Positions 7,589-64,000 of a stretch of 64,000 nucleotides of DNA are shown piece by piece. The stretch is from IMG/VR virus record IMGVR_UViG_3300042383_000245, positions 1,287-65,286 of that record. The stretch is one strand, 5' to 3'. Source of the DNA: a virus (Duplodnaviria; Caudoviricetes). Positions within the stretch are counted from its first letter, which is position 1; each line of letters begins with the position of its first letter. The notes below the pieces were generated by a model. That model was not told the origin of the DNA, made no database searches, and saw nothing but the letters and a program-made list of their open reading frames with translations. Made by a program: the position numbers and the translations under genes.

Positions 7589-8687
7589 GCAAGAGGCTAT
7601 TGAGCTATTCAACGAGGGAAAGCTCAACAAGTCCCAGATCGCTAGGCAATTGAAGGCCAAGTACAATCTGCCGATGTCCGCAGAGACAGTGAGGAAAGAG
7701 GTTTGTAGGCAAGTAGGTAAACACAAGGCACTCGTTCAAGAGTGTGAAACGTTGGGAATACCATCAGAACAAGTAAAACATTACTGGCACAAAGGGAAAC
7801 ACTTCTCTATCAATGTCAAGGGATCTGACGCTCCGTCATACGAGGAGATCCGTGACGAGATGATCGAGCAGATGTCCAAGTACTCACCGCAGTACCAGTA
7901 CATCCACAGGAGTCAGAGCCGTGACGGACACCTATTGGTATTGGACCCAGCTGACATACACATCGGAAAGCTCGCTAGTTCTTTTGAGACCGGCGAGGAG
8001 TACAACAACCAGATCGCTGTACAGCGTGTAAAGGAAGGCGTTAAGGGCATCTTGGACAAGACCGCAGGGTTCAACATCAACAAGATCCTTTTCATCGCAG
8101 GAAACGACATCCTACACATTGACACGCCAAGAAGGACCACCACGTCTGGAACGTTCCAGGACACGGACGGCATGTGGTACGACAACTTCTTGATCGCAAA
8201 ACAGCTATACATTGAGTTATTGGAGATGTTGGTTACGGTTGCAGACGTTCACTTCTGCTTCAACCCGTCAAACCATGACTACACCAATGGTTTCTTTTTG
8301 GCCGACACGATTCAGTCTTGGTTCTCTAAGAGTGAAAACATTACCTTCGACTGCTCTATTGCACACAGAAAGTACTACACTTACGGGGACAACATGATTG
8401 GGTCAACACATGGAGATGGTGCCAAGGCACAGGACTTGCCGTTATTGATGGCACAAGAAAGTCCACAGTCATGGGCACAGACCAAGCATCGCTATGTGTA
8501 TACACACCACGTGCACCACAAGACGTCCAAGGACTACATCGGTGTTACTGTGGAGAGTCTACGTTCACCGTCTGGGACAGACAGCTGGCATGACCGAAAT
8601 GGTTACAAAGGTGCTCCCAAGGCGGTGGAGGGATTCCTCCACCACCCAGAGCACGGGCAGATCGCTAGGATCACCCACATATTCTAG
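7575..8687 (+). CDS. calcineurin-like metallophosphoesterase with N-terminal HTH
   Basis: DIHIG, GND, SNHD, HGD and HxHH metal-binding motifs; N-terminal NKSQIARQL helix-turn-helix-like segment. Confidence 0.8.
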   Translation: MKSYKQEAIELFNEGKLNKSQIARQLKAKYNLPMSAETVRKEVCRQVGKHKALVQECETLGIPSEQVKHYWHKGKHFSINVKGSDAPSYEEIRDEMIEQMSKYSPQYQYIHRSQSRDGHLLVLDPADIHIGKLASSFETGEEYNNQIAVQRVKEGVKGILDKTAGFNINKILFIAGNDILHIDTPRRTTTSGTFQDTDGMWYDNFLIAKQLYIELLEMLVTVADVHFCFNPSNHDYTNGFFLADTIQSWFSKSENITFDCSIAHRKYYTYGDNMIGSTHGDGAKAQDLPLLMAQESPQSWAQTKHRYVYTHHVHHKTSKDYIGVTVESLRSPSGTDSWHDRNGYKGAPKAVEGFLHHPEHGQIARITHIF

Positions 8688-39620: not shown

Positions 39621-40190
39621 TCAATACACCCTAACATAGATGTTCTGACCGTTTCCTGTGTGGTCAATTATTCCAGATGATGCACTTGCACCGGGCGCTA
39701 CTTGATACGGAGAGCCACCGAAGTCTGTCCACGTACTTCCGTTGTATGAGTACTCTACGGTTACTGTAGGGAACGGAGGAGGACCGGGCGTTGCGATAAA
39801 GTTAACCTGTAGGGTTATCTGGTCCCAGTGTGGAACACCGCCACCACCCTGTGTTGTGTTTGGTGGTACTCCGTTGACCGTAAAAGGAGATACAGCAGGA
39901 TTTAGTCCTGGAGTACCTATACCCATCGATCTAATAACTTGAAAGTTGCAACTTATAAGGCTTGCTGGTACTGATGACTGAACTTGGAAAGAGTATCCCA
40001 CCTTCGCCTCTAGGTTGTAGAATCCGCTCATTTTGATGGTTGTTTGGTTCACGTAGTCATATGCATCAGCGTATCCATCAAACAGCCTGTAGTCGTTGAA
40101 CTGCGAGAACAGGGCAGGACTTGGAGTTGTGATGTCCAAGTCCGTTATCAAGTCCCCGATGAGTATTACCCCAGATGTTGGCGTGCTCAT
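39621..40190 (-). CDS. putative tail fibre-associated structural protein
   Basis: overlaps the stop of the tail fibre gene; Pro/Gly/Ser-rich beta protein. Confidence 0.5.
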   Translation of the reverse strand: MSTPTSGVILIGDLITDLDITTPSPALFSQFNDYRLFDGYADAYDYVNQTTIKMSGFYNLEAKVGYSFQVQSSVPASLISCNFQVIRSMGIGTPGLNPAVSPFTVNGVPPNTTQGGGGVPHWDQITLQVNFIATPGPPPFPTVTVEYSYNGSTWTDFGGSPYQVAPGASASSGIIDHTGNGQNIYVRVY

Positions 40191-46100: not shown

Positions 46101-47554
46101 ATGTATGCGCCATACCCCCCACCATGAGCAAAATATGCCGAGGCGCTAGCATTGGATGAAAATCTTCCAGCCCAGTCACCAGCTACTCCGCTTACATCTA
46201 ACTTAAATCCAGGACTAGTAGTACCAATACCTACGTTACCTGAGGCGTGTTTTATTGTAAATTCCTGTTGCCCAGCACCAGGATCCCCACTAACAGAGGG
46301 TAGTGTTCTTATATAAAAATCACCAGCAGTATAATTATTTGCACTCCCAACAAGCCACCCCTTAGAATTGAATGAATCCCACATTCTAATAGCAGGGGCA
46401 GTTGGCCAAGTTTGACCGCTTCCATTCAGCTCTAATCTACCATATGGGCTAGTAGTTCCAATGCCTACGTTCCCACTAGATGTAATTACAAGTCTTGGAG
46501 ATCCATTTGGAACAGAAATGCCAAAATCTGCTGTATTGTTAGCATTAACATCGGTTAAAATTGCTGCTATATTGGACCCCGTATAGTCGTGGAAACCTAT
46601 TGAATTCCTTTTATTACCAGTTAATGGAGTTTGAATATATTGAGACCAAGTACTAGCTCCATCTACAAGTATACTTAACTTACCAACAGGACTAGTAGTA
46701 CCAATACCTACGTTGCCGCTAGAGGTGATACGCATACGCTCGGTGGCAAGATTACTACCAGCATAGAACACCATTGATGCAGCAGTAGAACTCTCTTGTA
46801 ATGCAAACAATCCCGCAGCTGCGTTATACGAAGAGTTTGTATAAAGGCCAATACCAGCAAGGTCTCCATTTGCATTATTACTGTTTACAATTATATGACC
46901 AGCATATCCATCACTATCTAATGGATTAGATATAAATGCACGAGAATATAACTGTCTAAATTGTCCATTAACCTGAAGTTTTGAAATTGGAGCAGTAGTA
47001 CCGATACCTACGTTACCACTGCCATTAAAATAAAGTCTTGCTGTACCTGCATTAATTGGATCACCACCACCAGAATTACTTTGATAAATACCAAAATCAT
47101 TTGCTGCTAAGTTTGTTGTTGCAAATCCCCAACTGGTAGTACCGCTTGTTGACCTCATTTTAAATGTTGCTACATCTGGCGTTGTAATTGTTATGCCATT
47201 ATATGTAGATGCTACAACTTGAAGTTTGTCAGTTGGACTTGTAGTACCGATACCTATATTGCCATTGTCTTGCATTACCATGTGCCAAGATGTACCAGCA
47301 TTATTGCCTAAATACATCTGACCATTGTAGTAATCCATTTGAAATCCATCTCCACCACCTTCAGCAGAAAATAGAAAATCTCCTGAGTTTATTGTTATGC
47401 CTCCGCTAGTATATGTAGGAGAATATATAGTTCCTTCTACATGAAGTTTGTAACTTGGACTAGCCGTTCCAATCCCTACTGTACCCAATACATAGGCATT
47501 CTGTTCCACGCCAAGGTTTGTCTTGGCGAGTATGTCTGTTATGAATTTTCTCAT
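40187..47554 (-). CDS. long repeat tail fibre with C-terminal peptidase S74 intramolecular chaperone
   Basis: more than 20 GNVGIGTTSP-type repeats; C-terminal AFSDITVKKEV...GVIAQEVQKVLPEVV...VAYSNMVALLIEGMKE. Confidence 0.85.
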   Translation of the reverse strand: MRKFITDILAKTNLGVEQNAYVLGTVGIGTASPSYKLHVEGTIYSPTYTSGGITINSGDFLFSAEGGGDGFQMDYYNGQMYLGNNAGTSWHMVMQDNGNIGIGTTSPTDKLQVVASTYNGITITTPDVATFKMRSTSGTTSWGFATTNLAANDFGIYQSNSGGGDPINAGTARLYFNGSGNVGIGTTAPISKLQVNGQFRQLYSRAFISNPLDSDGYAGHIIVNSNNANGDLAGIGLYTNSSYNAAAGLFALQESSTAASMVFYAGSNLATERMRITSSGNVGIGTTSPVGKLSILVDGASTWSQYIQTPLTGNKRNSIGFHDYTGSNIAAILTDVNANNTADFGISVPNGSPRLVITSSGNVGIGTTSPYGRLELNGSGQTWPTAPAIRMWDSFNSKGWLVGSANNYTAGDFYIRTLPSVSGDPGAGQQEFTIKHASGNVGIGTTSPGFKLDVSGVAGDWAGRFSSNASASAYFAHGGGYGAYIDAGTNATSATYLMSLVSNGSTRMYVRGDGAVGIGTGSPSLESAGIGLDILNSSYTQLRVRSSSSSAGIEMTPGAGKRWEIQANTSSNWFVYDRTDQLYRFLIDYSGNVVINDTSAYAKLDVRGQNVLLYRPSVNASAIYSAANNTYSWQFGINDGADFVITGGGFAGLGTETFRIASAGAATFSYSVTASSNITSLTNLGFVNTNASQAGFVADYTGTGAVKVSMSTYNNIFQVYNETSGYSIFNFTPSTKAFVINPTGGNVGIGTTSPLSPLHQVGGGGNYTGEARFGGSSTAFGIELKYTQAGSTLGSIYTSPTYSSADILFKLGAGLGNENQLVLKGNGNVGIGTTSPADTLSYGKALDIQSSTGAAIYLRDSDATSVYGLFAYDGGGINRTNIGGIGANNYVRIISAGNEAIRIDASSNVGIGTTSPTEKLAVAGRITLSGSEFSFSGDEDKNITVFSNRLLNLRTNDITRLTITGSGNVGIGTSSPSAKLQVEGDGIVINTENVAAAKFLYFRYSNGADVRSDSFLTFSTSGSPTERMRITSAGNVGIGTTDPQKPLEVITSASNFASVGVNALAIGEWTGIHFGYRESNSLYRKSAIVFQRTGSAAEGSIHFLNNNDADNSSATLANSRMVITSAGNVGIGTSSPSSILQLGSGSYTTTNSSYNSFNSGGFGVLFRNDYDAYITFNTVYGASGWVNKYSAYKSAVLNFNDGALDISTGTGITAGSASNLTSRLTMTNGGNVGIGTTSPVTGLDVRTSPYSNTTARFGTARPVYIINDDPIIGFNQYYNSGWKAGTTGYSGNVGLSSAGEMYFNVSTSSVVTDNIVTQREVMRILNNGNVGIGTTSPGAMLDIYHATNGYASVGLQGYSTAAKWFLTSGISGDTIQDFSISHNNNGTSPVFRLSNSTGAATFSNLAGTGTRMVVADANGLLSTQAIGSGAITGSGTTNYLPKFTGTSTIGNSQLFDNGSNVGVGTDAPSALLTVSSVGFDDTYFRVEQRRGGYASAINLVGATDAGAIYNRISSQTNGGTTHWQIGGGAVANTMAFYTGGNLRATLNASGNLGLGVTPSAWFSTWRAIEIGGADSNVAGNGTGPFRLLRNAYIDAGGTWIYKNTGEASFYQQSTGNHIWYSAPSGTAGNSISFTPLMTLNASGNVSIGNTNDTYKLDVSGTVRVNGSNPAYRTDNTTSYTSLVSYLSGTRSWQLDNVSNDFWLYMAGSLNTYVLKIAASTGAATFSSSVTATNMVLNNTTNDAADTLRIYRGTSGGYQYQSAIIDAVSGDTNLRNIATDSARAIVFSFSTNGASSYTERMRITSAGNVGIGTTSPATKFHVVGSRILVEDTNAGIMFRTGGVDRYSVASNGGAFQIYDEVNLTNRLYITSTGNVGIGTTSPNAKLEVVGNINTRGLYFYDGGNSGTLRIDNSYGGGIDYHADQNGHRFFTWVSGTGWVQHFTITDAGNVGIGTTSPAYKLDVATGNDNAIRILNSSGSNNNGLALSVGSGTPWLDFYGGRFDIKYNTSPGSWNSGANTFLSILSSGNVGIGTTSPNYKLHVSGNAYINETLFVNQLTTIEDSLIVYDNLGVGTTTPSSKFHVVTGTTGNIAIFQGGAGRYIVTGTDGSGQYIEQVGNSSGERILRIQNSNGSGAYTQLFLDGGNQRIYTSTNVNVGIGTTSPGAKFQVSGGDGIINNAFIGEVPSYTSANAQFSHTSRAVAGEYSFLSANDGETFINSKTGYNIRFRVNNNDKVIINSAGNVGIGTTSPSEILHVKSPGNNGGVRYIVFLGQNSTGYQNSFVASVQDELTDLGAGIVGTNTGSNLSFSTHPNGGALTERMRITKTGNVGIGTTGPSYNLHVEGNTSGISIYASHDIAAFSDITVKKEVKRIENAIEKVKEMNGYTYVRTDDETGTRRAGVIAQEVQKVLPEVVSANPDGTLNVAYSNMVALLIEGMKEQQATIERLENRIKMLEK

Positions 47555-52559: not shown

Positions 52560-54130
52560 TTGGCTCTTGCGTTAGTGATGATACAGTTGGTGCTCATGAT
52601 CGTCGTGGCGACGCTTACGGCGTTCTCTAAGGCACTCTTGGTGACTTTTAGAGGGTCTATGATGCCCATCTCGATCATATTGCCTACACGGGCCTCTTTC
52701 ACGTCGTATCCGTAGCCGAACTGTCCTTGATATCCCAAGGCGATGTCGCCCTTGATCTCGTTCGCGTCGTATCCTCCGTTTGCCAAGATGGTATTGAACG
52801 GCTGCTGCATGGCATGCTTGAGGATGTTCTTTGCTGTCGAGCAGCCACACATCTCACCTGCGATGTTCAGAAGCGCCACACCACCACCGGGCAGGATGCC
52901 TCCCTCCATGGCGGCCTTGGTCGCGTACACCGCGTCCTCGACCCTGTCCTTCTTCTCTTTCATCTCCACGTCGCTCTGTGCGCCGACGTAGATAACACCA
53001 ACACCACCTGCAAGGTTCGCCAAACGCTCCTCTAGGTGCTTTTTCACGTACTCGTTGGTCGCTTCCTCCAGTTTTGTGCGGATGGAATCGACGCGTGTCG
53101 CAACTCCAGCCTGAGACTCGTCGTCCGTCATGATAACAGTGCTGTCCTTAGCAACCACCACCTTGTTGGCGTGGCCTAGGTCAGCGAACGAAATGGTGAA
53201 CAGGTTGTCGCCCGTCTCGTCAGAGATGTACTTGGCGCCGGTTGCGGCCGCGATGTCCTCCATGATCTCGGAGCGGTTGGCACCGAAGCTTGGTGGAACG
53301 ATGGCGCAGACCTTGATCACTCCCTTCATCTTGTTCAAGTTTAGGCTGTTCAATGCGTTCTCCGCCAGCTCCGCGATGATCAGTATGCTTTTTCCTTGCT
53401 GCACGATCGGAGCCAATAGGTGCTCGATGTTGTTCAAAGACGATATCTCCTGGTCAGAGACCAGTATGTAGCAGTCCTCGAGGATCGCTTCGTTCTTTTT
53501 CTGGTCCGTGATGAAGTACTTCGACATGTAGCCCCTGTTTAGCTTCATTCCAGACACCACCTCTGAGTAAGTCGTAGCGTTGTTCGACGCCTCAACCGTT
53601 ACAACGCCGTCTTTTGACACCATGGTATACGCGTCAGCGATGATCTGCCCCAGCTCTGGGTCATTATTGGCCGAAATGGTAGCCACAGACGCCAATGATT
53701 CGTCGGTTACCGGTATCGCCATCGCGTCCAGAGCCTGTCCAACAGCAATTGCGAGGTCTTTCACCTCTCTGAGAACCTTTGTTGGGTTGTCCTCTGGCTT
53801 GATGAACTGCTGGTAGCCATGGATCAGGGCCTGCGTAAGCACCACAGACGTAGTTGTCCCGTCACCGGCAGCTGTTGCAGTCCTCTCAGAAGCCTCACGG
53901 ACCATCTGCACGGCCAAATTCTGCGTTGGATCGTCCAATACGATGGACCTTGCGACGCTAACACCGTCTTTTGTTACGTGAATTCCGTGTGTGAACTGGT
54001 CAGACTCGATCAATACGGTCTGGCCACGGGCTCCGAGGGTGGATTTTACGGCATCGGCGATGATGTCAATGCCAGACACCAGCTTTGCACGGGCGTCAGC
54101 CCCAAATTCTACATTTTTTACAATATTCAT
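52556..54130 (-). CDS. groEL: chaperonin GroEL (phage-encoded)
   Basis: ADAVKSTLG, VTKDGVSVA, AGDGTTTS, ATISAN, ERLANLAGG, EKKDRVEDA, PGGGVAL, GIIDP; start moved to 54130. Confidence 0.93.
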   Translation of the reverse strand: MNIVKNVEFGADARAKLVSGIDIIADAVKSTLGARGQTVLIESDQFTHGIHVTKDGVSVARSIVLDDPTQNLAVQMVREASERTATAAGDGTTTSVVLTQALIHGYQQFIKPEDNPTKVLREVKDLAIAVGQALDAMAIPVTDESLASVATISANNDPELGQIIADAYTMVSKDGVVTVEASNNATTYSEVVSGMKLNRGYMSKYFITDQKKNEAILEDCYILVSDQEISSLNNIEHLLAPIVQQGKSILIIAELAENALNSLNLNKMKGVIKVCAIVPPSFGANRSEIMEDIAAATGAKYISDETGDNLFTISFADLGHANKVVVAKDSTVIMTDDESQAGVATRVDSIRTKLEEATNEYVKKHLEERLANLAGGVGVIYVGAQSDVEMKEKKDRVEDAVYATKAAMEGGILPGGGVALLNIAGEMCGCSTAKNILKHAMQQPFNTILANGGYDANEIKGDIALGYQGQFGYGYDVKEARVGNMIEMGIIDPLKVTKSALENAVSVATTIMSTNCIITNARAK

Positions 54131-54158
54131 ATTTGATTTTATTAGTGCAAATATAAAC

Positions 54159-54183
54159 AAAAAAAGGGCCGTTAAGCCCTTTT
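54159..54183 (-). terminator. intrinsic terminator (bidirectional form)
   Basis: AAAAGGGC-CGTTAA-GCCCTTTT. Confidence 0.65.
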
Positions 54184-54203
54184 CTGTCACATTGTCGTGA
54201 AAA

Positions 54204-54413
54204 TTATTTTCTCTTGGTCATCTTGCCACTGCCGTACTGGCTTCTGGTAGTGTATGTCTGGTACTCCTTCACTGGAGTCGCCATGTCTGACTTTTTGAGC
54301 TTCGATGGCTGTGCCTTTGTTGCCTTTTTGCCGATTACGCCCTTGGCCATCAACACGTCCTTCTTGGTAACCTTTCCGTCACCGCTCATGTCTGGGAATT
54401 TTTTATTTTTCAT
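54204..54413 (-). CDS. small basic protein with EF-hand-like loop
   Basis: PDMSGDGKVTKKD. Confidence 0.6.
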   Translation of the reverse strand: MKNKKFPDMSGDGKVTKKDVLMAKGVIGKKATKAQPSKLKKSDMATPVKEYQTYTTRSQYGSGKMTKRK

Positions 54414-54418
54414 TTCTT

Positions 54419-54733
54419 TTAGAATTTACTTTTTGACTTACAAAAGTTATTGCCAACGCCGCAGTTACCAGAACCACGAGACACTGTAGAAGAACGTACT
54501 TTCATCTTTGTCTTCTGTACGTTTGCACGCATCTTGTCTCTCATCAAGTCGATGCCCTTTCCGCTAGACACGTTTGACTTCTTCTTCTTTACTGTACCTG
54601 TATTAATAGCAGGCATAGCAGGACCTCTAGTGTCATCTTTCTTTGGTGGGTTAAAACCAGGAGCCATAAATGGCTTAGTTGCCGCCTTGACTGTCGGCTT
54701 TACCGTTGGTGTAGGGTTCTTTTTAGTTGCCAT
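54419..54733 (-). CDS. Lys/Pro-rich basic protein
   Basis: low-complexity basic ORF tightly packed with its neighbours. Confidence 0.55.
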   Translation of the reverse strand: MATKKNPTPTVKPTVKAATKPFMAPGFNPPKKDDTRGPAMPAINTGTVKKKKSNVSSGKGIDLMRDKMRANVQKTKMKVRSSTVSRGSGNCGVGNNFCKSKSKF

Positions 54734-55044
54734 TATTTTGTTTTCTTTTTACCACGACCCATTTGACGCAGTTCTTTGTTTGTTGGTCCTTGTCCAGTTC
54801 CTAATCTTGGATCATTTGAATTCATATATCTATCCGATCCCCTTTGTTTTTGTCTTGCTCTAACCTCAGAAATGACAACGCCAGTAGCAGCACCAATAGC
54901 GCCTCCAACTTTTGCCATAGTATCTTTGCGCTTTGCCTTTTTCATCTCAGCGGTCTTCGCTGGTGTCATGGGAACCTTTGGGGCTGCCTTCTTGGCCTCC
55001 TTCTTGGTAGCTGGTCCCATCATGGGCTTCTTTGGTTTCATCAT
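54733..55044 (-). CDS. Lys/Met-rich basic protein
   Basis: low-complexity basic ORF; TATCTTTG 7 nt upstream. Confidence 0.55.
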   Translation of the reverse strand: MMKPKKPMMGPATKKEAKKAAPKVPMTPAKTAEMKKAKRKDTMAKVGGAIGAATGVVISEVRARQKQRGSDRYMNSNDPRLGTGQGPTNKELRQMGRGKKKTK

Positions 55045-55060
55045 AATGCTACAAAGATAA

Positions 55061-55639
55061 TTATAAATCCCTACTCTCGATCAGCGTGTAGGTCCACTTA
55101 GTACCCTTGTCGAGCTGCACTACCTTCATAAACTCATCGAAGTCCTTGATCCGCTTAAATACCTGACAGCCCTCAGACCAGTTCTCTACCACCGCCGAGT
55201 CGGCGCCCGCGTGGTGGATGTTGATGCCAAAGATTCCGGTGTCAACCTTGGTCTCATCGAAGACCATGTCCTTGTTCGCATCCCTGTATACCTTCACCGG
55301 CCCGCATTGCTTCAATGCCTTGTACTTTCCCTGATGTAAACCAACAAAGTGTGACCCTGGGTACTGCCCCGGTACAACGCGTGCAACGCCACCCGCATTG
55401 TGGAACTGCTTCACAGCCTTCGTCCCCGGATCAGTGGTACACGCCCACTTGTGGAAACACCACACGCCCTTGTCATTCTTGTACGACAATGTCATCCAGT
55501 CGTCAAAGACGTTCGTTACCTTCTTGCCGGGACTGGAGTTCCGAACACCAATCACATTCATGTTGTACTCTCCATTCTCAAAGTACTTGTAACCAAGCTT
55601 GGCACAAGCAGCCATTACTGTCTCTCTTGTAATTTCCAT
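55061..55639 (-). CDS. putative endolysin with L,D-transpeptidase (YkuD)-like catalytic motif
   Basis: NVIGVR...FDD...TTDPG...GINIHHAG...WSEGCQVF (His...Ser-x-Gly-Cys); start moved to 55639. Confidence 0.6.
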   Translation of the reverse strand: MEITRETVMAACAKLGYKYFENGEYNMNVIGVRNSSPGKKVTNVFDDWMTLSYKNDKGVWCFHKWACTTDPGTKAVKQFHNAGGVARVVPGQYPGSHFVGLHQGKYKALKQCGPVKVYRDANKDMVFDETKVDTGIFGINIHHAGADSAVVENWSEGCQVFKRIKDFDEFMKVVQLDKGTKWTYTLIESRDL

Positions 55640-55699
55640 AGTACAAAGATAAGCCATGGACACGAAAGCATACAAGACCTCACGAGTGAGCTCTTATAC

Positions 55700-55915
55700 C
55701 GTTGTGTCGAAAATTGGGTTCCCTACTACTACTATATATAAATACTATATTTATATTTTTTTTTAAATCCTTAATCAAGGAGAAAAAAACGACACAAATA
55801 GAATAATATATTAGAAATCAATGAGTTAGACCATGTCGCCTCCAGTGTCACTTTAAGTAGAATCGACACCTGTCCACGCAAAACCGACACTTATCCACAA
55901 AAACCGACACATAAT
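55700..55915. repeat. iteron-like CGACAC repeats, AT-rich tract and DnaA box (candidate origin)
   Basis: CGACAC at 55790, 55864, 55885, 55905; inverted GTGTCG at 55704; TTATCCACA at 55891-55899. Confidence 0.45.
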
Positions 55916-55980
55916 CAAGCCACTTTTTGGATTGGTTATATAGCAGGTGTGTAAGAGCTCCGCTGACATTTGGTACATAA

Positions 55981-56014
55981 AACAGAAAAGGCCCCGATGT
56001 CGGAGCCTTCTGTT
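55981..56014 (-). terminator. intrinsic terminator
   Basis: AACAGAAAAGGC...GCCTTCTGTT inverted repeat downstream of 56029..56208. Confidence 0.55.
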
Positions 56015-56028
56015 GGGACCAGGTGGTG

Positions 56029-56208
56029 TTACTTACAGCTACCTTTCACCTTCATGGTGAGGGGCATGTCTGTCATTTTCTTTGCCATTGACATGGCTTC
56101 CGCCATCATCATGGTCTTCTTTGCCTGCTTCATCATAGACTTTTGCTCCGCCATTTTGGCGATGCCAGTTGTCTGTGGAGGCATCGGATTGTTAAGTGGT
56201 TTCTTCAT
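56029..56208 (-). CDS. Met/Lys-rich small protein (59 aa, not in track)
   Basis: MKKPLNNPMPPQTTGIAKMAEQKSMMKQAKKTMMMAEAMSMAKK...; TATCTTCG 4 nt upstream and terminator downstream. Confidence 0.65.
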   Translation of the reverse strand: MKKPLNNPMPPQTTGIAKMAEQKSMMKQAKKTMMMAEAMSMAKKMTDMPLTMKVKGSCK

Positions 56209-56250
56209 GTTGCGAAGATACTACAAGTTTGTCATTCACAGAGTGAACGA

Positions 56251-56385
56251 CTACCAAATGAATGTTACACGGAACAAACCTAAGTTGATGTCCAGTTCCT
56301 GGTGCTCGCCAGGATAGTTAGACTGAAAGTACTCGACGCCGAATAGAAAGGCGGAGGGAAATAATAAGGAGATCTCGATACCCAT
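56251..56385 (-). CDS. small hydrophobic protein (44 aa, not in track)
   Basis: MGIEISLLFPSAFLFGVEYF...LGLFRVTFIW; TACTTTTG 4 nt upstream. Confidence 0.55.
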   Translation of the reverse strand: MGIEISLLFPSAFLFGVEYFQSNYPGEHQELDINLGLFRVTFIW

Positions 56386-56821
56386 GTAGCAAAAGTAAGT
56401 ATAAGTCGCCAGACTTATAAGTGCCAATTATAAACCTATAGGCTTATAATCGACCATGTGATTTATACCTGTAGGTATAATACCGGGGAGTACTAGATGT
56501 TTAGAGATTCTGGGTAACCCCCCCATATTGCGCGTCCGGCCCCCGATCGGAAAGTGATCTTTTTTGCCCCACCCCCCTCGGGTTCTGTCGGCCCGTCCCG
56601 AATTTTTGGGCTTTTCGGCCTCGCGTCGACGTCGTCGATGTGACCGCCCCGATACGCGCCCAACAGCCCGTCAACCCGCGGAAACGTTGGGAACGCGCAG
56701 AGTTTCCGTTGGCTCTCGCATGCACATCGCATTTGAAACGCAACTTCCCTATCTCTCGCCATTTCACGCAGTTATGCGAATTGTCATGGAAATGTCATAA
56801 GATTAAAATATACGAAAATAA

Positions 56822-56864
56822 ATGTTGACATGCATAGAATTGTCAACATAAAGAGTTACTTTTG
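56822..56864 (+). promoter_or_regulatory. early promoter with overlapping inverted repeat
   Basis: ATGTTGACA-N10-TGTCAACAT (56822-56849) followed by a TACTTTTG-type -7 box upstream of the first early gene. Confidence 0.55.
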
Positions 56865-56888
56865 AATTGTCTTAAAACAAACACAGAT

Positions 56889-57161
56889 ATGAACACAATC
56901 TCAATCAACGCAGACAGCCAATTCTTCCAAGACTTAATGGACGAGAGCAAGGCAATCAACATCAACGGCAACATGGTTGCCAAGGGTTATTGGAACTTGG
57001 TTCTATCAATCCGTGACTGCTCCATGTACGCCAAGGTAGGCATGAAACCACATCGCCATTGGAAGATAACCGACGTAAAGAAATACTTCGGCATCAAGGG
57101 TACAGCACAGCAGATACACGAGCAACTTGTACAAATCAAAGAGGCAATCACCGAAGGTTAA
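56889..57161 (+). CDS. early hypothetical protein
   Basis: start moved to ATG 56889; its TAA lies inside hammerhead stem I. Confidence 0.7.
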   Translation: MNTISINADSQFFQDLMDESKAININGNMVAKGYWNLVLSIRDCSMYAKVGMKPHRHWKITDVKKYFGIKGTAQQIHEQLVQIKEAITEG

Positions 57162-57209
57162 CTGACGAGTCTTAACTAGACGAAACGGGGCTCACGCCCC
57201 GTCTTAACC
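57156..57209 (+). ncRNA. type I hammerhead ribozyme 1
   Basis: GGTTAA-CTGACGA-GTCT(taact)AGAC-GAAA-CGGGGC(tcac)GCCCCG-TC-TTAACC; complete core; GUC cleavage predicted after 57203. Confidence 0.93.
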
Positions 57210-57222
57210 AAAACAAAAGAAC

Positions 57223-57531
57223 ATGAAAATCTACTCAGTAAACAAAAGCGAAGACGGGTTAATGACCCAAGCATTCACCAACATCAAAGCCTTGTACAAC
57301 GGCATCGTTGAGCACGGGTACAACGCAGAGACCATCACGATGGTAAGCAGACCCGACGATAGGTCAAACATGCAAGGCTACAAGTTCACGGACGTGAAAT
57401 TCACATATGCGAACCTAGTCAAGGCATTGCGAGATTCATCGGACGGAGGTCGGTTATACGAACGGGTGACCATCAACTGCGAGAGGGACAACTTCATGTA
57501 CGTATCGGAGCACCAAATCGTATCAAAGTAA
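57223..57531 (+). CDS. early hypothetical protein
   Basis: 102 aa ORF between ribozymes 1 and 2. Confidence 0.7.
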   Translation: MKIYSVNKSEDGLMTQAFTNIKALYNGIVEHGYNAETITMVSRPDDRSNMQGYKFTDVKFTYANLVKALRDSSDGGRLYERVTINCERDNFMYVSEHQIVSK

Positions 57532-57589
57532 GGTTAACTGACGAGTCTTCAGTAGACGAAATGGGCTGGCCATCCAGCCCATCTTAACC
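57532..57589 (+). ncRNA. type I hammerhead ribozyme 2
   Basis: GGTTAA-CTGACGA-GTCT(tcagt)AGAC-GAAA-TGGGCTGG(ccat)CCAGCCCA-TC-TTAACC; AUC cleavage predicted after 57583. Confidence 0.93.
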
Positions 57590-57604
57590 AACACACACAT
57601 AGAC

Positions 57605-58003
57605 ATGAAGCACCTTATCAAATTACCCCAAGTGAATCCCGTTTACATCGTATCAAGCGAAGACGACAGCATGTACGCTGTGGTAGAACACAACGAGACC
57701 CTCGCCCACATCGTCGAGACCATCGACGGCACAAGGCAGACCTTGTACTTCCCCAACGGCGGAGAGATGTACTTCCAAGATACTGACCTACACCAAGTGA
57801 TGAGCCATGTGCCAAGCAGAACCAACTACGACATGGCATGGATGTGGTTTCAAGAGAACGAGTTTTCGTTCTTGCATGACCGAGGAAACGGAACAATCCA
57901 AGTGTACGTTGAGAACCCGAACAAAACTCAGCAATGCTACATGGACATATCACCCGAGGAGATTGACTATCGTGCTCAACTTTGGAGAGAGTCAAGAGGT
58001 TAA
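57605..58003 (+). CDS. early hypothetical protein
   Basis: 132 aa ORF between ribozymes 2 and 3; its TAA lies inside stem I. Confidence 0.7.
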   Translation: MKHLIKLPQVNPVYIVSSEDDSMYAVVEHNETLAHIVETIDGTRQTLYFPNGGEMYFQDTDLHQVMSHVPSRTNYDMAWMWFQENEFSFLHDRGNGTIQVYVENPNKTQQCYMDISPEEIDYRAQLWRESRG

Positions 58004-58053
58004 CTGATGAGTCCTAGGTGGACGAAAGGGCTGGCCATCCAGCCCTCTTAACC
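57998..58053 (+). ncRNA. type I hammerhead ribozyme 3
   Basis: GGTTAA-CTGATGA-GTCC(taggt)GGAC-GAAA-GGGCTGG(ccat)CCAGCCC-TC-TTAACC; CUC cleavage predicted after 58047. Confidence 0.93.
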
Positions 58054-58067
58054 AAAACAACAACGAC

Positions 58068-58298
58068 ATGCAAAACGAAATGACCAAACTACTCACCGAG
58101 TATTCCGACGCAAAAAATTACATCCTCAAAATTACTGACGAGTATTACGACGCAATGTCATACGACATCGAGGGATGGTGGAACTTAATCGAGGATGACG
58201 AGGCTGACGAGAAAGACCTACACGAACTTCGCCTTCAAGTACATGCAGTAAAGTCTTTGCACATGGCTTTGTCTTGCCTTAAGTATAAGTTCTCCTAA
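58068..58298 (+). CDS. early acidic hypothetical protein
   Basis: 76 aa ORF after ribozyme 3. Confidence 0.65.
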   Translation: MQNEMTKLLTEYSDAKNYILKITDEYYDAMSYDIEGWWNLIEDDEADEKDLHELRLQVHAVKSLHMALSCLKYKFS

Positions 58299-58359
58299 AA
58301 TAAATTTGGTAGATACAAAACTAAACTTTAATATTGTGAACACTTTAATAACAACGAAC

Positions 58360-59298
58360 ATGAATACACCACAAACATTGTTGGCACACTTGCGGAACGC
58401 AGAGACCAACCACATCGGATTCTCTTACAACATCAACAATGGCGACTCAAACCCCGAGACAGGGTACATGGTATCACGTGTTGGCCACGAGGAGATTGTA
58501 CCACAAGGCGCTGACCTTGTAGCCTATGGCAAGCACTACTTCCTCCGCCATGCTGAGCAACTAGCGGAAGACAACGCCTACATGGGCTGTTGGTACAACG
58601 GCAGTCAGTTTGTATTTGACGTATCAGAGAACGTACAAACCAAGGAGGTCGCTATCGTATTGGGCGAATACAACAAGCAAGACGCAATATGGGACTGCGC
58701 GAGCGGATCCGAGTATAGGCTGATGAGAGAGGGCGACAACCCCTCTCATTTGGTGACCATCTACTACAACGACGTGTTCGTCAGCGAAGAGCCAAACGAA
58801 ATCTATGCGAACTGCCCGTACGTGAACATGCCAATTGCCGAGGCAACAAGGTATGCAGACCGAATGATTGAGAACGGAGATTGGGACGCATACTGCATCC
58901 CCGAGTTGTGCAACCACGAAGTAAAATTCACCGAGGTTTCATTTCAAAGAGATGGCGATGCAGAAAAAATCTACACTAAAGATGAACTTTATGCAATCAT
59001 GCGTTCATTTGTCGAAGACACTCGAGGCGACAAGCCATGGGTCGACGCAGATGACGAGTGGTTTGAGCAATTCACCAAAACAAATACCGAGGTTTTGTTC
59101 CAAAGGGATGGCGACGAGGCCAGCCTAGGTGAGTATAAGGATGCGGACTACCAAGCCATGCTCGATACATTGGACGTGGCAATGGATGAGTTCTCTCAAA
59201 TCTATAACCACTCAGCATCGAACGAATTTCGTGAGTACTACGAAATGCACATGACCCAATTGGACAATATCATCAACCTAATTAACAAACTGAAATGA
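58360..59298 (+). CDS. early multi-domain hypothetical protein
   Basis: start moved to 58360; N-terminal GYMVS...YMGCW...FDVS...QDAIWD domain and acidic C-terminal part. Confidence 0.65.
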   Translation: MNTPQTLLAHLRNAETNHIGFSYNINNGDSNPETGYMVSRVGHEEIVPQGADLVAYGKHYFLRHAEQLAEDNAYMGCWYNGSQFVFDVSENVQTKEVAIVLGEYNKQDAIWDCASGSEYRLMREGDNPSHLVTIYYNDVFVSEEPNEIYANCPYVNMPIAEATRYADRMIENGDWDAYCIPELCNHEVKFTEVSFQRDGDAEKIYTKDELYAIMRSFVEDTRGDKPWVDADDEWFEQFTKTNTEVLFQRDGDEASLGEYKDADYQAMLDTLDVAMDEFSQIYNHSASNEFREYYEMHMTQLDNIINLINKLK

Positions 59299-59558
59299 GC
59301 ACCGAACAAAAATTCACCATCGACGAGTTCTTAAAATTATCGGAAAGGTACTTCTATGAGGAGTACCATAGGGTAACCGAGAGCGTGTTCAAGGACATCA
59401 ACCCGTCGATGTTCATCGAGCAAGAGTTGTACTTGTACGGAGGTAACCAAATCAAGACGAACTACAAGTGGAACAACGGCACATGGATATTAGTAGACAA
59501 GGTCTACATGAGAACAAACAGCGAATTCAAACAATACATAAAGGAGAACTTAAAATGA
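59295..59558 (+). CDS. hypothetical protein
   Basis: ATGA overlaps at both ends. Confidence 0.6.
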   Translation: MSTEQKFTIDEFLKLSERYFYEEYHRVTESVFKDINPSMFIEQELYLYGGNQIKTNYKWNNGTWILVDKVYMRTNSEFKQYIKENLK

Positions 59559-60079
59559 AATACAAATTGACAACCACACGCACCTACGTCACGGAGATGA
59601 TAGTGGTAGCAGAGAGCGAGTCCGACGCATGGGACTGGGTTAACGAGAACAGCGACCTAGTTGCTGAGGCAGAACTTGAGCAGATGAACGTCGTCGATGA
59701 AGAGTCAACGCTAGAGCCATGCATCCCCAGTCCGAACGAGTACGACGAGTTGCAGTCACTTGCCTACAACATTCAAAGCCAACTGCAAGCATATAGACAC
59801 GTTAGTGACTTCATCCCAAGCGAGATGCACAAGGCATTGGCAAAGATGACTGAGCCAATAGTGGAGACGCACAAGGTAAGCACAAACTACATGGGGTTTA
59901 CTACGGGAGCATACAAATATGTTGACGAGTTGAACAAACTGATAGGACGCAACGCTTTCTCATGTCGTGCTACGGATGTAGACCCATACCCTTACAAAAA
60001 TTGGATAGTCTTTGGAAACAATATCACCGACGAAGAAATCAACCGACTCAACTTGAGGCAAGATTTTATCATCGATTAA
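59555..60079 (+). CDS. hypothetical protein
   Basis: start moved to ATG 59555 (ATGA overlap). Confidence 0.6.
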   Translation: MKYKLTTTRTYVTEMIVVAESESDAWDWVNENSDLVAEAELEQMNVVDEESTLEPCIPSPNEYDELQSLAYNIQSQLQAYRHVSDFIPSEMHKALAKMTEPIVETHKVSTNYMGFTTGAYKYVDELNKLIGRNAFSCRATDVDPYPYKNWIVFGNNITDEEINRLNLRQDFIID

Positions 60080-60123
60080 CCACGAAAGGAAACGAGAGGG
60101 GTTCAATTCCCCTCCGTGGTTCA
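60078..60123 (+). ncRNA. anticodon-less tRNA-like element 1
   Basis: AACCACG/CGTGGTT acceptor-like stem stacked on a GAGGGG-TTCAATT-CCCCTC T-arm; 11-nt connector containing GG. Confidence 0.55.
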
Positions 60124-60184
60124 AATAGGGACTCGATGAAATTGAGTTCCACAACTTAACAAGCAATCTAATAAAACTCAATAC

Positions 60185-60454
60185 ATGAACATTCAAACAA
60201 TTTACAAGAGACAAAAGTCAGCAGGTGTTGACTACATGCAACGATTAATCAACAACGGCTCAGTATGGGCAATGGAAGGGTCAATGGGACGTGAGGCAAT
60301 GCGCTTACTTGAGATGGGCATTTGCATGCTACCCAAGAAATCATTCACGGACTACTACGGCAATCGCATCCCGTCACGCGACGAACTGAAAGGATGTACC
60401 AAAGGAACATACGCCAACGCTGTACGCTACTGGTCTAACGGATGGGAGGACTAA
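60185..60454 (+). CDS. hypothetical protein
   Basis: QRLINNGSVWAMEGSMGREAMRLLEMG...DYYGNRIPSR motif seen in phage early proteins. Confidence 0.7.
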   Translation: MNIQTIYKRQKSAGVDYMQRLINNGSVWAMEGSMGREAMRLLEMGICMLPKKSFTDYYGNRIPSRDELKGCTKGTYANAVRYWSNGWED

Positions 60455-60457
60455 ACA

Positions 60458-60675
60458 TGAAATACATTTTAACTGGCCTAAGAGCCATCCATTACCATGC
60501 CGAGGGCAACTACGAAGAGGTAATAAACTTAATCAAGCAGAACGAGGCAGACATCTTTGAGATAGACTCATTGGACGGGATATACGAACTGCTCGAACAA
60601 CTTAGGGGATGGGATGACTACTGCGTAATCACCAGCCTTGAGAGAAATAAAATATTACATTTCTATGACAAATAA
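60458..60675 (+). CDS. hypothetical protein
   Basis: MKYILTG... start within track ORF 60442..60675; exact start approximate. Confidence 0.5.
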
Positions 60676-60729
60676 ATTAGGTTATCAACAAGATAGTAAC
60701 TAATATTGCACCAACCAACCAACAAACAT

Positions 60730-61134
60730 ATGAACAAAACAATCACAACCCCCGACAATTTCACATGGCACATCATCGAGCCACGTGTAGCACAAATCAT
60801 CCACCAAGCGGACTACCCAGTCTATCGCATCTACGACGACATGAGCGAGTCATTGCTTGAGGAAGACCACAGGTTCAACGCTGACTACTGCTACGGCATT
60901 GAAGAGCCAGCAAATGACATGGTGTACACACTATGTGGCAAGACTGCTGTATCGTCTTTCATGGATAGAGAGTACGACAAATGCCACGACTCAATCTTCG
61001 CCTACCGCACGTCGGACATCCACTTCTTCAGCCCAAAGGCCAGCCCCAAGGAGGTCATCAGAGTGCTGAGATACTGCGACGCGACATGCTACGTAGACAA
61101 ATCTGACTTTTTAAACATCATCCAACATGGCTAA
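60730..61134 (+). CDS. hypothetical protein
   Basis: start moved to ATG 60730; TAATATTG promoter-like box upstream. Confidence 0.6.
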   Translation: MNKTITTPDNFTWHIIEPRVAQIIHQADYPVYRIYDDMSESLLEEDHRFNADYCYGIEEPANDMVYTLCGKTAVSSFMDREYDKCHDSIFAYRTSDIHFFSPKASPKEVIRVLRYCDATCYVDKSDFLNIIQHG

Positions 61135-61696
61135 TCATTGCTACAACTCCGCATCAATCGAAGGAAGCAAGCAGATGCTTGACCTATTCGAGCAACGACT
61201 CAACGAGGCAACAAAGATATCTCGCACGCTTTACAACAACACTTTCTACCAAGTCTTAGGTAAAGAACCAGTTGATGGTGACGTGTACAACACCTTCGGA
61301 TCACGATGGTTTGACCCAATGTGGGAAAGACATTCAGCAACTAGTGGTGTATTGTCTGGAGACTCAGCATGGAGTCCAGTAAGTGAGTTCTTTAGATTAT
61401 TGTCTGACGTGTACCAACTAGAGATAACCTCTACATACGAGGAGTGTGGAGACAACTTCGGTGGATGGTTTGACTGCGAGAACGGAGAGATGACAAGAGA
61501 CATTACCACATCGTTCTATGCGTTCAGATATATGGACGACAGAGAACACACGATGGAGACCATGCTAGAGGATGCGACTGACGGGTACTGGGAGAGCGTT
61601 GACGACTTCGACTCAGAACTGCTAGAGATAATGAGAGAGAAAGACAGGGCGGAGTTGATTGAGGCGGTAAACAAATACATAGCAGAGCAGGGTTAG
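61127..61696 (+). CDS. DUF1281/YubB ferredoxin-like domain protein
   Basis: MANHCYN...FGSRW...DSAWSP...YEECG..FGG pattern. Confidence 0.65.
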   Translation: MANHCYNSASIEGSKQMLDLFEQRLNEATKISRTLYNNTFYQVLGKEPVDGDVYNTFGSRWFDPMWERHSATSGVLSGDSAWSPVSEFFRLLSDVYQLEITSTYEECGDNFGGWFDCENGEMTRDITTSFYAFRYMDDREHTMETMLEDATDGYWESVDDFDSELLEIMREKDRAELIEAVNKYIAEQG

Positions 61697-61742
61697 TCCC
61701 CTCTCTGCTAGCGACAGCACCATTTCACAATGGTACTGCCAC

Positions 61743-61758
61743 GTTCTTTGACATATTG
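61743..61758 (+). promoter_or_regulatory. boxA-like antitermination element
   Basis: GTTCTTTGACATATTG resembles rrn boxA; preceded by a hairpin at 61715-61738. Confidence 0.5.
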
Positions 61759-61864
61759 GACGATTGTTTGGCGGTCGAATGACCGACCAACTATGTACGC
61801 ACACTGGACTGAGTCCCAGTCCTTTGAATCGTGGGTGGAACACCACGGGGTGATGCGGTGAACA

Positions 61865-61914
61865 GCATGGGATATGAACGGGTATACGGGGTTCAAATCC
61901 CCACCCATGCACAA
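61865..61914 (+). ncRNA. anticodon-less tRNA-like element 2
   Basis: 7-bp GCATGGG/CCCATGC acceptor stem, ATAT-GAACGG-GTAT D-like arm, GGGG-TTCAAAT-CCCC T-arm, 3' A-CAA; no anticodon arm. Confidence 0.6.
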
Positions 61915-61974
61915 AGGCTAGCCATCACTAGCCCTCAACGATAGGTTGTAAATGATATTTGTTTTAAGGTTTTA

Positions 61975-62250
61975 ATGTGGGAGACTGATGGGTCTCCCTT
62001 TTTAAACAAGACTATGAAATTTAAAGACATACTAACTGAACGCTTTCCCACCATCGTGATAGTGGAAGAGCCATGCATGATGGCCTACGCGGACTGTTTC
62101 TGCGTGAGGTCGAACGGCAAAGACTCCAAGGGATTCCCACTGATATCCATCAGTGTTGGAAACTCGGACGAACTGGAACACTTTTTATTTGAGCACGGAT
62201 ACTTCTCGGAGTTCGTGAGCGAGACTGAACTAGCAATTTGTAAAGAATGA
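61975..62250 (+). CDS. hypothetical protein
   Basis: track ORF; the true start is probably the internal MKFKD. Confidence 0.55.
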   Translation: MWETDGSPFLNKTMKFKDILTERFPTIVIVEEPCMMAYADCFCVRSNGKDSKGFPLISISVGNSDELEHFLFEHGYFSEFVSETELAICKE

Positions 62251-62681
62251 GATACTACGCAAAAAATTCTCAAGAGGCACGGAGTATGCTTCTTGACATG
62301 CACAATGGACAGCAGTCCTACGCACTAACCCTTGAGTCATGTGGATGCGGTGACGGATACGCCATATCCGATCCGATAGACGACAGCAAAAAGGTTGTAA
62401 TATGCCACACATGTGAGGCTGAGGTTGACAGGCTGATACCTCTTGACAACTATGCGGTTGATGGCTTTGGATACGACCCACGGACTGACAAGCCATTGCC
62501 GATGCCTTCGGAGTACAAGTTGCTGGAAGACACGATGGAGGAGAGCGACAAAGACCACATGTTGGAGGACGTTTTCTACTACATGAAGAGACACAAAAAC
62601 ATGCTCACAAAGGATGGGCGTTACTTACTAATTCAATACCTCGGAGACGACAACATAACGATTGGAATTTATGAACACTAA
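62247..62681 (+). CDS. hypothetical protein with CxC/CxxC
   Basis: SCGC...ICHTC possible Zn site; ATGA overlap. Confidence 0.6.
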   Translation: MRYYAKNSQEARSMLLDMHNGQQSYALTLESCGCGDGYAISDPIDDSKKVVICHTCEAEVDRLIPLDNYAVDGFGYDPRTDKPLPMPSEYKLLEDTMEESDKDHMLEDVFYYMKRHKNMLTKDGRYLLIQYLGDDNITIGIYEH

Positions 62682-62862
62682 ACTATTCAAGAAGATTAAA
62701 AGACGCTACGTTTACTTCTGGCACAAGGGTCAGTTACGCGCTTGGGACAAACGCAAACAGGAGGAGGTGCACCAGTATGTATGCACCCAGTACTGGATGA
62801 TACGCATCGCTTGTGGGTTCTTTGTTGCAGAGAAATACTTAAGTAGGAGGATATACAAATGA
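62662..62862 (+). CDS. hypothetical basic protein
   Basis: overlapping small ORF in the operon. Confidence 0.5.
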   Translation: MEFMNTKLFKKIKRRYVYFWHKGQLRAWDKRKQEEVHQYVCTQYWMIRIACGFFVAEKYLSRRIYK

Positions 62863-63031
62863 GACGCGTACTTGAAATACTAGTTATCGCACTAATGCTG
62901 TTGCTAGCCCTTGGCATGGTTGCATTCTGCATCTACAGCCCAGTAACATTCATGGTCATCACGCTGACCGCCAGCGGATGCCTCTTCACATACTCAGCAG
63001 TACAAGTAATTAAATATAAAATAAACAAACT

Positions 63032-63283
63032 ATGAAACTATACACAGAAGAACAAGTATTGGAAATAATTGCCAATATAAACAGAGATGTAAACGTGAGT
63101 TCTCAAGAGTTATTGAAAGGTATAGAAGTTGACCATATCGAACTACCAAGTGATGATGAGATTAAAAAAATGATGGAGTTGGATGGTATGGAGTTTGATG
63201 AATTTGACCCTTACGATGTATCTTATTTAGGTGGCGCAAAATGGATGCGTGATAAAATACAAGAAGACAATGACAAACAATAA
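63032..63283 (+). CDS. hypothetical protein
   Basis: MKLYTEEQV...IELPSDDEI...GAKWMRDKI motif family of Bacteroidota phage small genes. Confidence 0.65.
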   Translation: MKLYTEEQVLEIIANINRDVNVSSQELLKGIEVDHIELPSDDEIKKMMELDGMEFDEFDPYDVSYLGGAKWMRDKIQEDNDKQ

Positions 63284-63345
63284 AAAAATAATATGAACAA
63301 GAAATTTTCAGAATGGTACGGACAATTAAAAACAAAATCTAAGCA

Positions 63346-63612
63346 ATGACAAACAATAAACAACAAACGGCAGTTGAAAAACTATTATTAGCAACATTAC
63401 TTATCGGAATGATAAGTGGTTGCACAAAACCAACAGTATCATCAAAAACTACCAACTACACAATACCCAGTGAAGGTAATTTAGCATCAGACCCGCTTAA
63501 AGTATGTGTAATTGAAGGATGTGAATACTTCATTTGTAAGAATTACAAGGGTAATATTCTATGTCACAAAGGAAACTGCAAAAACCCAATACACAAGGGA
63601 GGTAACAAATGA
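63346..63612 (+). CDS. putative lipoprotein
   Basis: hydrophobic LLLATLLIGMISGC lipobox; IEGCEY...HKGNCKNPIH motif. Confidence 0.6.
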   Translation: MTNNKQQTAVEKLLLATLLIGMISGCTKPTVSSKTTNYTIPSEGNLASDPLKVCVIEGCEYFICKNYKGNILCHKGNCKNPIHKGGNK

Positions 63613-63857
63613 CAAACAATAAACAACAAACGGCAGTTGAACAATTTCTAAATGCTATTAAAGACCAAATTCTACTGAGTAAAGAACATCTTGAAATGAT
63701 AGAATCTTATGCAGACCAATGCAAAGAAATGGAGAAGGAAAGAATTGAAACTGCATACAACAAAGGAACAGTTCATGGAATTGATTATCCTGAAAGTACA
63801 CTACCAATAACTGGTGAACAATACTACGAACAAACCTACGGAGGAGGCGAGCAATGA
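63609..63857 (+). CDS. hypothetical protein (KQQTAVE family)
   Basis: MTNNKQQTAVE...KEMEKERI...EQYYEQTY. Confidence 0.65.
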   Translation: MTNNKQQTAVEQFLNAIKDQILLSKEHLEMIESYADQCKEMEKERIETAYNKGTVHGIDYPESTLPITGEQYYEQTYGGGEQ

Positions 63858-64000
63858 GTAACAATAAACAACAGACGGCAGTGGAGTTATTGGCAAAACT
63901 ACTGTTAGAAAAATTAGAAATAAAAGGAGATGGTTATGGAATTAATCAAATAATTAATTTATCCAAAGCAATGGAAAAGCAAATGACAATAAAACTTTAT
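63854..64000 (+). CDS. hypothetical protein (KQQTAVE family), truncated by window edge
   Basis: MSNNKQQTAVELLAKLL..., open to the end of the window. Confidence 0.55.
   Translation, partial: MSNNKQQTAVELLAKLLLEKLEIKGDGYGINQIINLSKAMEKQMTIKLY

Follow-up and report, generated by a model that had tools for sequence, protein, structure and literature searches.

Type I hammerhead motifs arranged in tandem between small genes at the start of a marine phage's apparent early operon, and their probable role in releasing linear single-gene messages

In a 65-kb tailed marine phage we found three type I hammerhead motifs, placed one after another between four small genes at the head of what looks like an early operon. 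We consider it probable that cutting by these ribozymes turns the early transcript into linear messages of one gene each, all with standard ends. What was observed directly comprises the motifs and their covariation, where they are placed, the rules that hold throughout their family and the mosaic arrangement of the relatives. The phage is represented by a virus record of 65,286 bases (IMG/VR record IMGVR_UViG_3300042383_000245), rated complete by CheckV. The window, which is the whole stretch of 64,000 nucleotides that was analysed (positions 1,287 to 65,286 of the record), covers nearly all of it. The features of the array, in window coordinates, are as follows.

56781-56809, + strand: promoter-like site, TTGTCA-17 nt-TAAAAT (consensus scan, 10/12)
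56889-57161, + strand: g1, ORF of 90 aa, the TAA stop of which makes up the last three bases of the 5' strand of HH1 stem I
57156-57209, + strand: HH1, type I hammerhead (scanner, core pattern and family covariance model), predicted cut after C57203
57223-57531, + strand: g2, ORF of 102 aa, the sole ORF in the 380-nt fragment 57204-57583
57532-57589, + strand: HH2, type I hammerhead (scanner, core pattern and covariance model), predicted cut after C57583
57605-58003, + strand: g3, ORF of 132 aa in the 464-nt fragment 57584-58047, with its TAA stop within HH3 stem I
57998-58053, + strand: HH3, type I hammerhead (scanner, core pattern and covariance model), predicted cut after C58047
58068-58298, + strand: g4, ORF of 76 aa, located 3' of the last ribozyme

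All three hammerheads lie on the coding strand between ORFs, in the order g1, HH1, g2, HH2, g3, HH3, g4. Read from 5' to 3', each consists of GGUUAA, CUGANGA, a stem II of 4 bp with a loop of 5 nt, GAAA, a G+C-rich stem III of 7-9 bp, UC and UUAACC. Stem I, which has 6 bp (GGUUAA/UUAACC) and is the open one, is common to HH1, HH2 and HH3. The type I core is complete in all three copies (G10.1-C11.1, A15.1-U16.1 and C at H17). Between the copies, stem II shows a compensated pair change from U-A to C-G; stem III is 95% identical in HH2 and HH3 and differs in HH1. The minimum-energy fold was the hammerhead shape for isolated HH1 and HH3 and, once 30-nt flanks were included, for HH1 and HH2; competing structures were obtained for isolated HH2 and for HH3 with its flanks. 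Inspection by eye of loop II and the flanks of the three copies revealed no complementarity that would allow tertiary pairing. Inside g4, at 58134-58147, there is a fourth ACTGACGAG-like core copy, which reaches only 8.9 bits with the family model and is either a chance occurrence or the relic of a ribozyme.

The core pattern CTGANGAGN{8,30}CGAAA was matched 3 times against 0.26 expected, and three or more matches occurred in none of 100 shuffles. Over the whole 65,286-base genome, there were 3 matches on the forward strand and 0 on the reverse strand, and the reversed control pattern gave 0. When the sites were compared with Rfam at gathering scores, HH1-HH3 gave no match; the scores were 27.7 bits for HH1 with RF00163 (cut-off 34), 36.5 bits for HH3 with RF03152 (cut-off 56.3) and a sub-threshold 24.8 bits for HH2 with RF03152. 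A permissive Rfam scan of 54000-64000 nevertheless returned the three sites as its top matches. The two Rfam families concerned, RF00163 (Hammerhead type I) and RF03152 (RAGATH-1), are the best matches and share the core and the stem order with the motifs, but the RAGATH-1 consensus line shows a further hairpin on the 5' side and a stem II that is minimal, neither of which was found in HH1-HH3. With a covariance model built from 57 family members, HH1-HH3 included, and a search of the window with filters off, the three sites scored 66.5-69.6 bits and the next best site 10.4 bits. Covariation is seen in stems II and III, among the three copies as well as over the 57 aligned members, with changes on both sides in 14 of the 16 pairs. 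The covariation score was 0.556 against 0.134 in shuffles, a figure to be read with the fact that the 57 members had been chosen by a scanner that requires pairing. Judged from these sequence features, the three motifs are genuine-looking type I hammerheads with predicted cleavage.

In these respects the results bear out the sequence-only reading, which had described hammerheads with an identical stem I in all copies: the scanner places all three on the + strand. The two fragments that it gave, of 380 nt (57204-57583) and 464 nt (57584-58047), are exact, each starting with UUAACC and ending with GGUUAA, core, stem II, stem III and UC. Its geometry is also right, since all three copies have one and the same stem I, so that joining the two ends of one fragment would rebuild a complete hammerhead around one ORF. 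One credible ORF per fragment is likewise what we find, g2 in the 380-nt and g3 in the 464-nt fragment; the latter also holds an overlapping alternative-frame ORF of 66 aa, which is taken as spurious.

Comparison of g1-g4 with Pfam and PHROGs assigned none of them to a family, g3 having only a sub-threshold match to DUF4988 (17.8 bits against a cut-off of 30), and an Atlas search yielded nothing beyond leads below 0.9 in the case of g2 and no usable match in that of g3. A blastn search of 56800-58400 against GenBank phages gave no match. By tblastn, however, relatives were found in related viral contigs: for g1 in L032 and L026 (56% and 49% identity), for g2 in L059 and L075 (49% and 43%), for g3 in L101, L059 and L046 (88%, 64% and 60%) and for g4 in L101 (96%). 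Because they have such protein-level relatives in other viral contigs (39-96% identity), we regard g1-g4 as real genes. That they serve host takeover is a guess from their position.

The + strand block of small ORFs begins past a divergent gap at 55.7-56.85 kb, behind the promoter-like site at 56781-56809, and continues into primase/helicase, reductase and exonuclease genes. PHROG matches on the + strand at 0.7-8.7 kb comprise primase/helicase, helicase, ribonucleotide reductase and exonuclease, and those on the - strand comprise portal, large terminase and virion proteins. Because the + strand block starts behind the divergent gap and the promoter-like site, the array looks like the head of an early, rightward operon, and the promoter-like site, whose function we infer, is the likely start region of the array transcript. 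A second promoter-like site lies at 58274-58301, over the end of g4. A direct repeat of 31 nt (56793-56823 and 58275-58305, 71% identity) covers the -10-like hexamers of both sites.

Several other features of the genome were recorded. Three giant ORFs lie on the - strand (8684-17044, 2786 aa; 20373-26249, 1958 aa; 40187-47554, 2455 aa), and a tRNA scan found no tRNA. In the divergent gap upstream of the array, 56400-56480 holds three hairpins in a row, the arms of which carry TATAA(G)/(C)TTATA-like words and which are possibly regulatory or origin-related. It is followed at 56500-56760 by a non-coding stretch that differs from the rest of the region in being G+C-rich and carrying runs of C and G, and that is about 87% kept in L101. 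Just 3' of the promoter-like site, at 56824-56847, there is an inverted repeat (GTTGACA/TGTCAAC with a 10-nt spacer), which is either operator-like or a 5' hairpin of the transcript; in L101 its arms are the same and its spacer is different. L101 itself carries, between the promoter region and the first gene (its positions 9880-10140), some 260 additional non-coding bases containing G+C-rich words that resemble hairpins; these bases are absent from the window.

In the mechanism that we think probable, cis-acting type I hammerheads occupy the spaces that separate the first small genes of the early operon, and each would fold as the polycistronic RNA is made and cut after C17. The upstream message would then end in the G+C-rich hairpin of stem III with a 2',3'-cyclic phosphate, and the downstream message would carry a 5'-OH and open with a leader that is short, A-rich and unstructured (UUAACC and a further 13-15 nt), followed by the AUG. 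The short stem I of 6 bp would let the downstream product dissociate, so that linear single-gene messages would result. Since translation and decay of each message would no longer depend on upstream sequence, the ribozymes would act as natural insulators, and units of ribozyme, leader and ORF would become easy to swap between phages. In the predicted folds, the isolated stem I is weak (-4.1 kcal/mol) and the first 26 nt of the cut 380-nt fragment, comprising the leader and the AUG, are unpaired. We infer cleavage in vivo, together with its effect on stability, translation and insulation. Several points weigh against the mechanism: the Rfam scores lie below the gathering cut-offs, competing folds were obtained for HH2 alone and for HH3 with its flanks, and two of the four genes (g1 upstream, g4 downstream) are bordered by a ribozyme at one end only, g4 being impossible to excise as a unit because no hammerhead follows it. 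RNA-library contigs of relatives (records 1, 4 and 6) span the cut sites, which could represent uncleaved RNA, carry-over of DNA or assembly across the sites. These data came from three runs (0.15, 0.05 and 0.05 of sampled words), with contigs compared over 56500-58700; the contigs are those of relatives (88-95% likeness, most of them 90-95%) and are blind to transcript ends and rare forms, so that they are neutral with regard to cleavage.

To place the array among its relatives, two samples of viral stretches were used. For the lineage sample, IMG/VR was searched with a pattern in which four pairs of stem I, the inner ones, were held constant (TTAA), which gave 106 stretches; together with the window, they hold 212 hammerheads on 107 locus-strands according to the scanner, with arrays of 2-5 on 63 of these. 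Placement was counted on the 189 distinct hammerheads of the 106 stretches plus the window. Counted from stem I, the stop codon of the upstream gene falls between -3 and +7 in 134 of the 189. It is a TAA within stem I in 67 of them and the TGA of the CUGA sequence in 21; in 28 it is a TAG whose final base is the first G, and in 18 a stop stands directly before stem I. No upstream ORF was called for 22 of the 189. Downstream, the next ATG-initiated ORF starts 19-24 nt past the cut in 124 of the 189, and none was called in 31. The 94 distinct neighbouring pairs in this sample have a median spacing of 406 nt and, by a crude call of ORFs of at least 30 aa, one ORF lies between the partners in 48 pairs, none in 8 and two or more in 38.

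For the second sample, stem I was left free, and at least 120 viral stretches with at least 127 distinct hammerheads were obtained. Among the matches listed, 125 of 127 have a stem I of exactly 6 bp, and an A lies 5' of this stem in 139 of 144 and 3' of it in 138 of 144; its sequence is diverse, with GGUUAA in only 14 of 127. The same design, namely a 6-bp A-flanked stem I, a 4-bp stem II and a UNANU loop, was seen in contigs such as L110, L140 and L151, and arrays of up to seven per contig, with very different stem I sequences and with GGAG in the leaders, occur among the matches listed. GGAG-like runs are found in the leaders of other sub-lineages, none in those of the window copies. The hammerhead design thus spans several phage lineages. 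Conserved are a stem I of constant length with A-flanks, a stop codon overlapping the ribozyme and a constant spacing to the next AUG, whereas the sequence of stem I varies. These conserved features point to precise separation of cistrons.

The layout itself, tandem hammerheads between phage genes, has been known since 2011, and the window array is ordinary in kind. In Perreault et al. 2011 (PMC3088659), multiple hammerheads are said often to flank single genes or short blocks in prophages, processing into single-gene mRNAs is proposed, and three other tandem arrays were cleaved in vitro and one in E. coli. Those arrays and ours have in common several direct-order hammerheads per transcript between genes of varying identity. 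The arrays tested there (PMC3088659) came from Clostridium, Azorhizobium and Agrobacterium prophages, whereas the present one belongs to a free marine phage genome and has a uniform type I design with a 6-bp A-flanked stem I, a 4-bp stem II and a UNANU loop. Reviews describe the role of hammerheads in phages and bacteria as still open (PMC6155905, PMC6765202). The release of single-gene RNAs was also part of the sequence-only reading, and this part of it stands as a likely outcome; the circularization that it added to the release is without support, as described below.

Synthetic insulators exist that work in the proposed manner. When a self-cleaving ribozyme such as RiboJ is put before a gene, the message receives a fixed 5' leader whatever lies upstream. 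Insulators of this type are engineered, whereas the window array would be a natural counterpart of them.

Another reading, compatible with linear messages and in our view possible though tentative, is that the hammerheads matter mainly as crossover points in DNA, where near-repeats of about 50 bp with a shared leader let phages gain, lose and swap cassettes of ORFans, with RNA cleavage secondary. The relatives give it substance. In L101, the flanks of which are 87-91% identical, the stretch 56849-57579 (g1-HH1-g2-HH2) is replaced by other genes plus two hammerheads, and homology resumes at 57580, on the 3' strand of stem I, where L101 is without a ribozyme. HH1 and its leader are matched at 86% identity in L101, where they stand as an island with unrelated genes on either side, and further block edges lie at 57210, 57523, 57585 and 58076. 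A marine RNA-library contig of a relative lacks exactly HH3 and g4 (joint of 57996 to 58297), and other RNA-library contigs turn unlike at 57531, 57997 and 57217, that is, at ribozyme edges or up to 8 nt from them. Four relatives show four different orders of genes and ribozymes. The suggestion that cassettes are gained and lost at the ribozymes is therefore borne out as a correlation, the relatives differing by whole gene/ribozyme units with breakpoints at hammerhead edges.

A precedent exists in the PeSL cassettes of T4-type phages, which, according to Arbiol et al. 2010 (PMC2839356), are short conserved intergenic elements flanking single ORFans, like those of the window. They lie in variable early regions, where indels and replacements between close relatives map to the elements, and the repeats flanking the ORFans recombine and even yield DNA mini-circles (PMC2839356). 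PeSL, however, are DNA motifs made of promoter plus terminator and the circles are DNA, whereas the window elements are ribozymes. What holds this reading back is that the ribozymes occupy the whole intergenic space; because they fill the spacers, any mosaicism at gene boundaries would map to them. Furthermore, the deletion of HH3 and g4 has a hammerhead at one side only, and the strong covariation and intact core indicate selection on RNA, beyond a mere DNA repeat.

The overlap of stop codons with the ribozymes allows a further reading, which we regard as unlikely, that ribosomes on the upstream gene unfold the ribozyme through the stop in stem I, so that cutting reports on translation or is tuned by it. 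The stop lies inside or touches stem I or the core in the 134 of 189 family members mentioned above and in two of the three copies here. Such overlap may, however, reflect mere compaction; in 18 of those 134 the stop stands just before stem I, and HH2 in the window lies behind the stop.

Linear release has finally to be set against circles. Here the two ends of a double-cut fragment would pair, UUAACC with its own GGUUAA, and the nick would be sealed by the reverse hammerhead reaction or by host RtcB, giving circular, exonuclease-resistant, translatable mRNAs of g2 and g3. We judge this very improbable for the window. The chance is similarly slim that, in the GGUUAA lineage of marine phages, in which nearly all members of an array have one stem I in common, a fraction of cut fragments is re-joined by the reverse hammerhead or host RtcB, the products being circular translatable mRNAs or re-assorted RNA joints. 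Were it true, a DNA phage would gain a pool of exonuclease-proof early messages.

The chemistry and the geometry suit a circle. As described in the review PMC6765202, 5'-OH and 2',3'-cyclic phosphate ends fit both RtcB and hammerhead ligation, and with an identical stem I in HH1-HH3 the chimera is a complete hammerhead, so that the ends from tandem cuts can pair. In the GGUUAA lineage, 83 of the 94 neighbouring pairs could rebuild all 6 pairs, a value that comes from a nearly uniform lineage ascertained on TTAA. In the sample with stem I left free, 21 of 42 neighbours among the matches listed are compatible against 5.6% of random pairs. Closer comparison of these 42 neighbours (again among the matches listed) argues the other way, as 21 are perfect, 9 keep five pairs and 12 keep four or fewer. 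When only neighbours that differ in stem I were considered, the sole perfect chimera was the one that a circle requires in 6 and 5 cases and the unneeded one in 6 and 2 (11 versus 8), and the mean numbers of pairs in the needed and unneeded chimeras were 4.73 versus 4.63 and 5.19 versus 5.24. Each ribozyme's own stem I is kept by compensatory changes, and nothing keeps the cross-ribozyme stem. Neighbours are also alike in stems II and III (0.72 and 0.66 versus 0.58) and in their leaders (0.76 and 0.72 versus 0.58), and HH2 and HH3 share stem III. Since the excess likeness extends to stems II and III and the leader, the compatibility of neighbours above random is ascribed to shared ancestry.

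The structures also speak against circles. Stem III, with 7-9 bp, is of a monomer-active design, and because it is long and stable, a ribozyme rebuilt in a circle should cut again. In the predicted folds, the chimeric stem I is closed with P of about 0.77 in the 464-nt fragment but of only about 0.001 in the 380-nt fragment, and a ribosome that terminates at the stop codon within stem I would unwind the stem once it had been rebuilt. Both fragments fold better than shuffles (z = -4.3 and -2.3; margins of -20 and -14 kcal/mol). No rod-like fold is evident in them, since the margin over shuffles is about the energy of the ribozyme hairpins alone. A search of the phage genome for RtcB (PF01139) found none, the control having found RtcB in 10 of 14 reference genomes; this result covers the phage only. 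In the RNA contigs of relatives from the three runs there were three skip joints and no backward one, an observation that counts neither for nor against circles, since contigs of this kind (88-95% likeness) cannot show rare forms. Circular products had been raised in 2011: in Perreault et al. (PMC3088659), spliced or circular products are considered possible and went undetected in the other arrays, by their unpublished data. In the literature on phage and bacterial hammerheads and circular RNA, we found no report of circular mRNAs made by a phage.

Systems that do make circles can be compared with the array. Retrozymes of plants and animals (Cervera and de la Pena 2020, PMC7229834; PMC13725137; PMC6155905) resemble it in having DNA-encoded tandem hammerheads; when these cut twice, the released piece has 5'-OH and cyclic phosphate termini and can be closed by a ligase of the host, as would be the case here. 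Their units are, however, non-coding retroelements, whereas the window units code for proteins. The type I hammerheads of circle-forming retroelements usually have, according to PMC13725137, a short helix III that limits cleavage of monomers; the animal type I retrozyme copies have such a short helix III, are cut as dimers and were observed as circles, whereas helix III in the window has 7-9 bp. The window ribozymes should thus be neither weakened as monomers nor masked by a rod-like fold. In the Avsunviroidae and hammerhead satellite RNAs, as PMC6765202 describes them, multimers are cut to unit length and the unit is closed by host tRNA ligase or by the ribozyme, but these are RNA genomes that replicate, fold into rods or branched structures and mostly carry type III ribozymes. 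The window array, in contrast, belongs to an operon of a DNA phage; it has no repeated unit and shows no evident rod-like fold. The circular, nuclease-resistant mRNAs suggested in the sequence-only reading thus find no support: the stem I match is not kept between neighbours (21 of 42, among the matches listed), there is no bias towards the needed chimera, stem III is long, the chimeric stem I forms in the predicted fold of one piece (P of about 0.77 in the 464-nt piece) and hardly in the other (about 0.001 in the 380-nt piece), and the phage is without RtcB.

The array belongs to a large family with strict rules: a stem I of 6 bp flanked by A, a stop codon in or beside stem I, 19-24 nt from the cut to the AUG, and mosaic cassettes. 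These rules provide a comparative argument against the repeatedly proposed idea of circular mRNAs, and they give clear and cheap tests of the idea that the hammerheads of such phages are natural insulators and makers of message ends.
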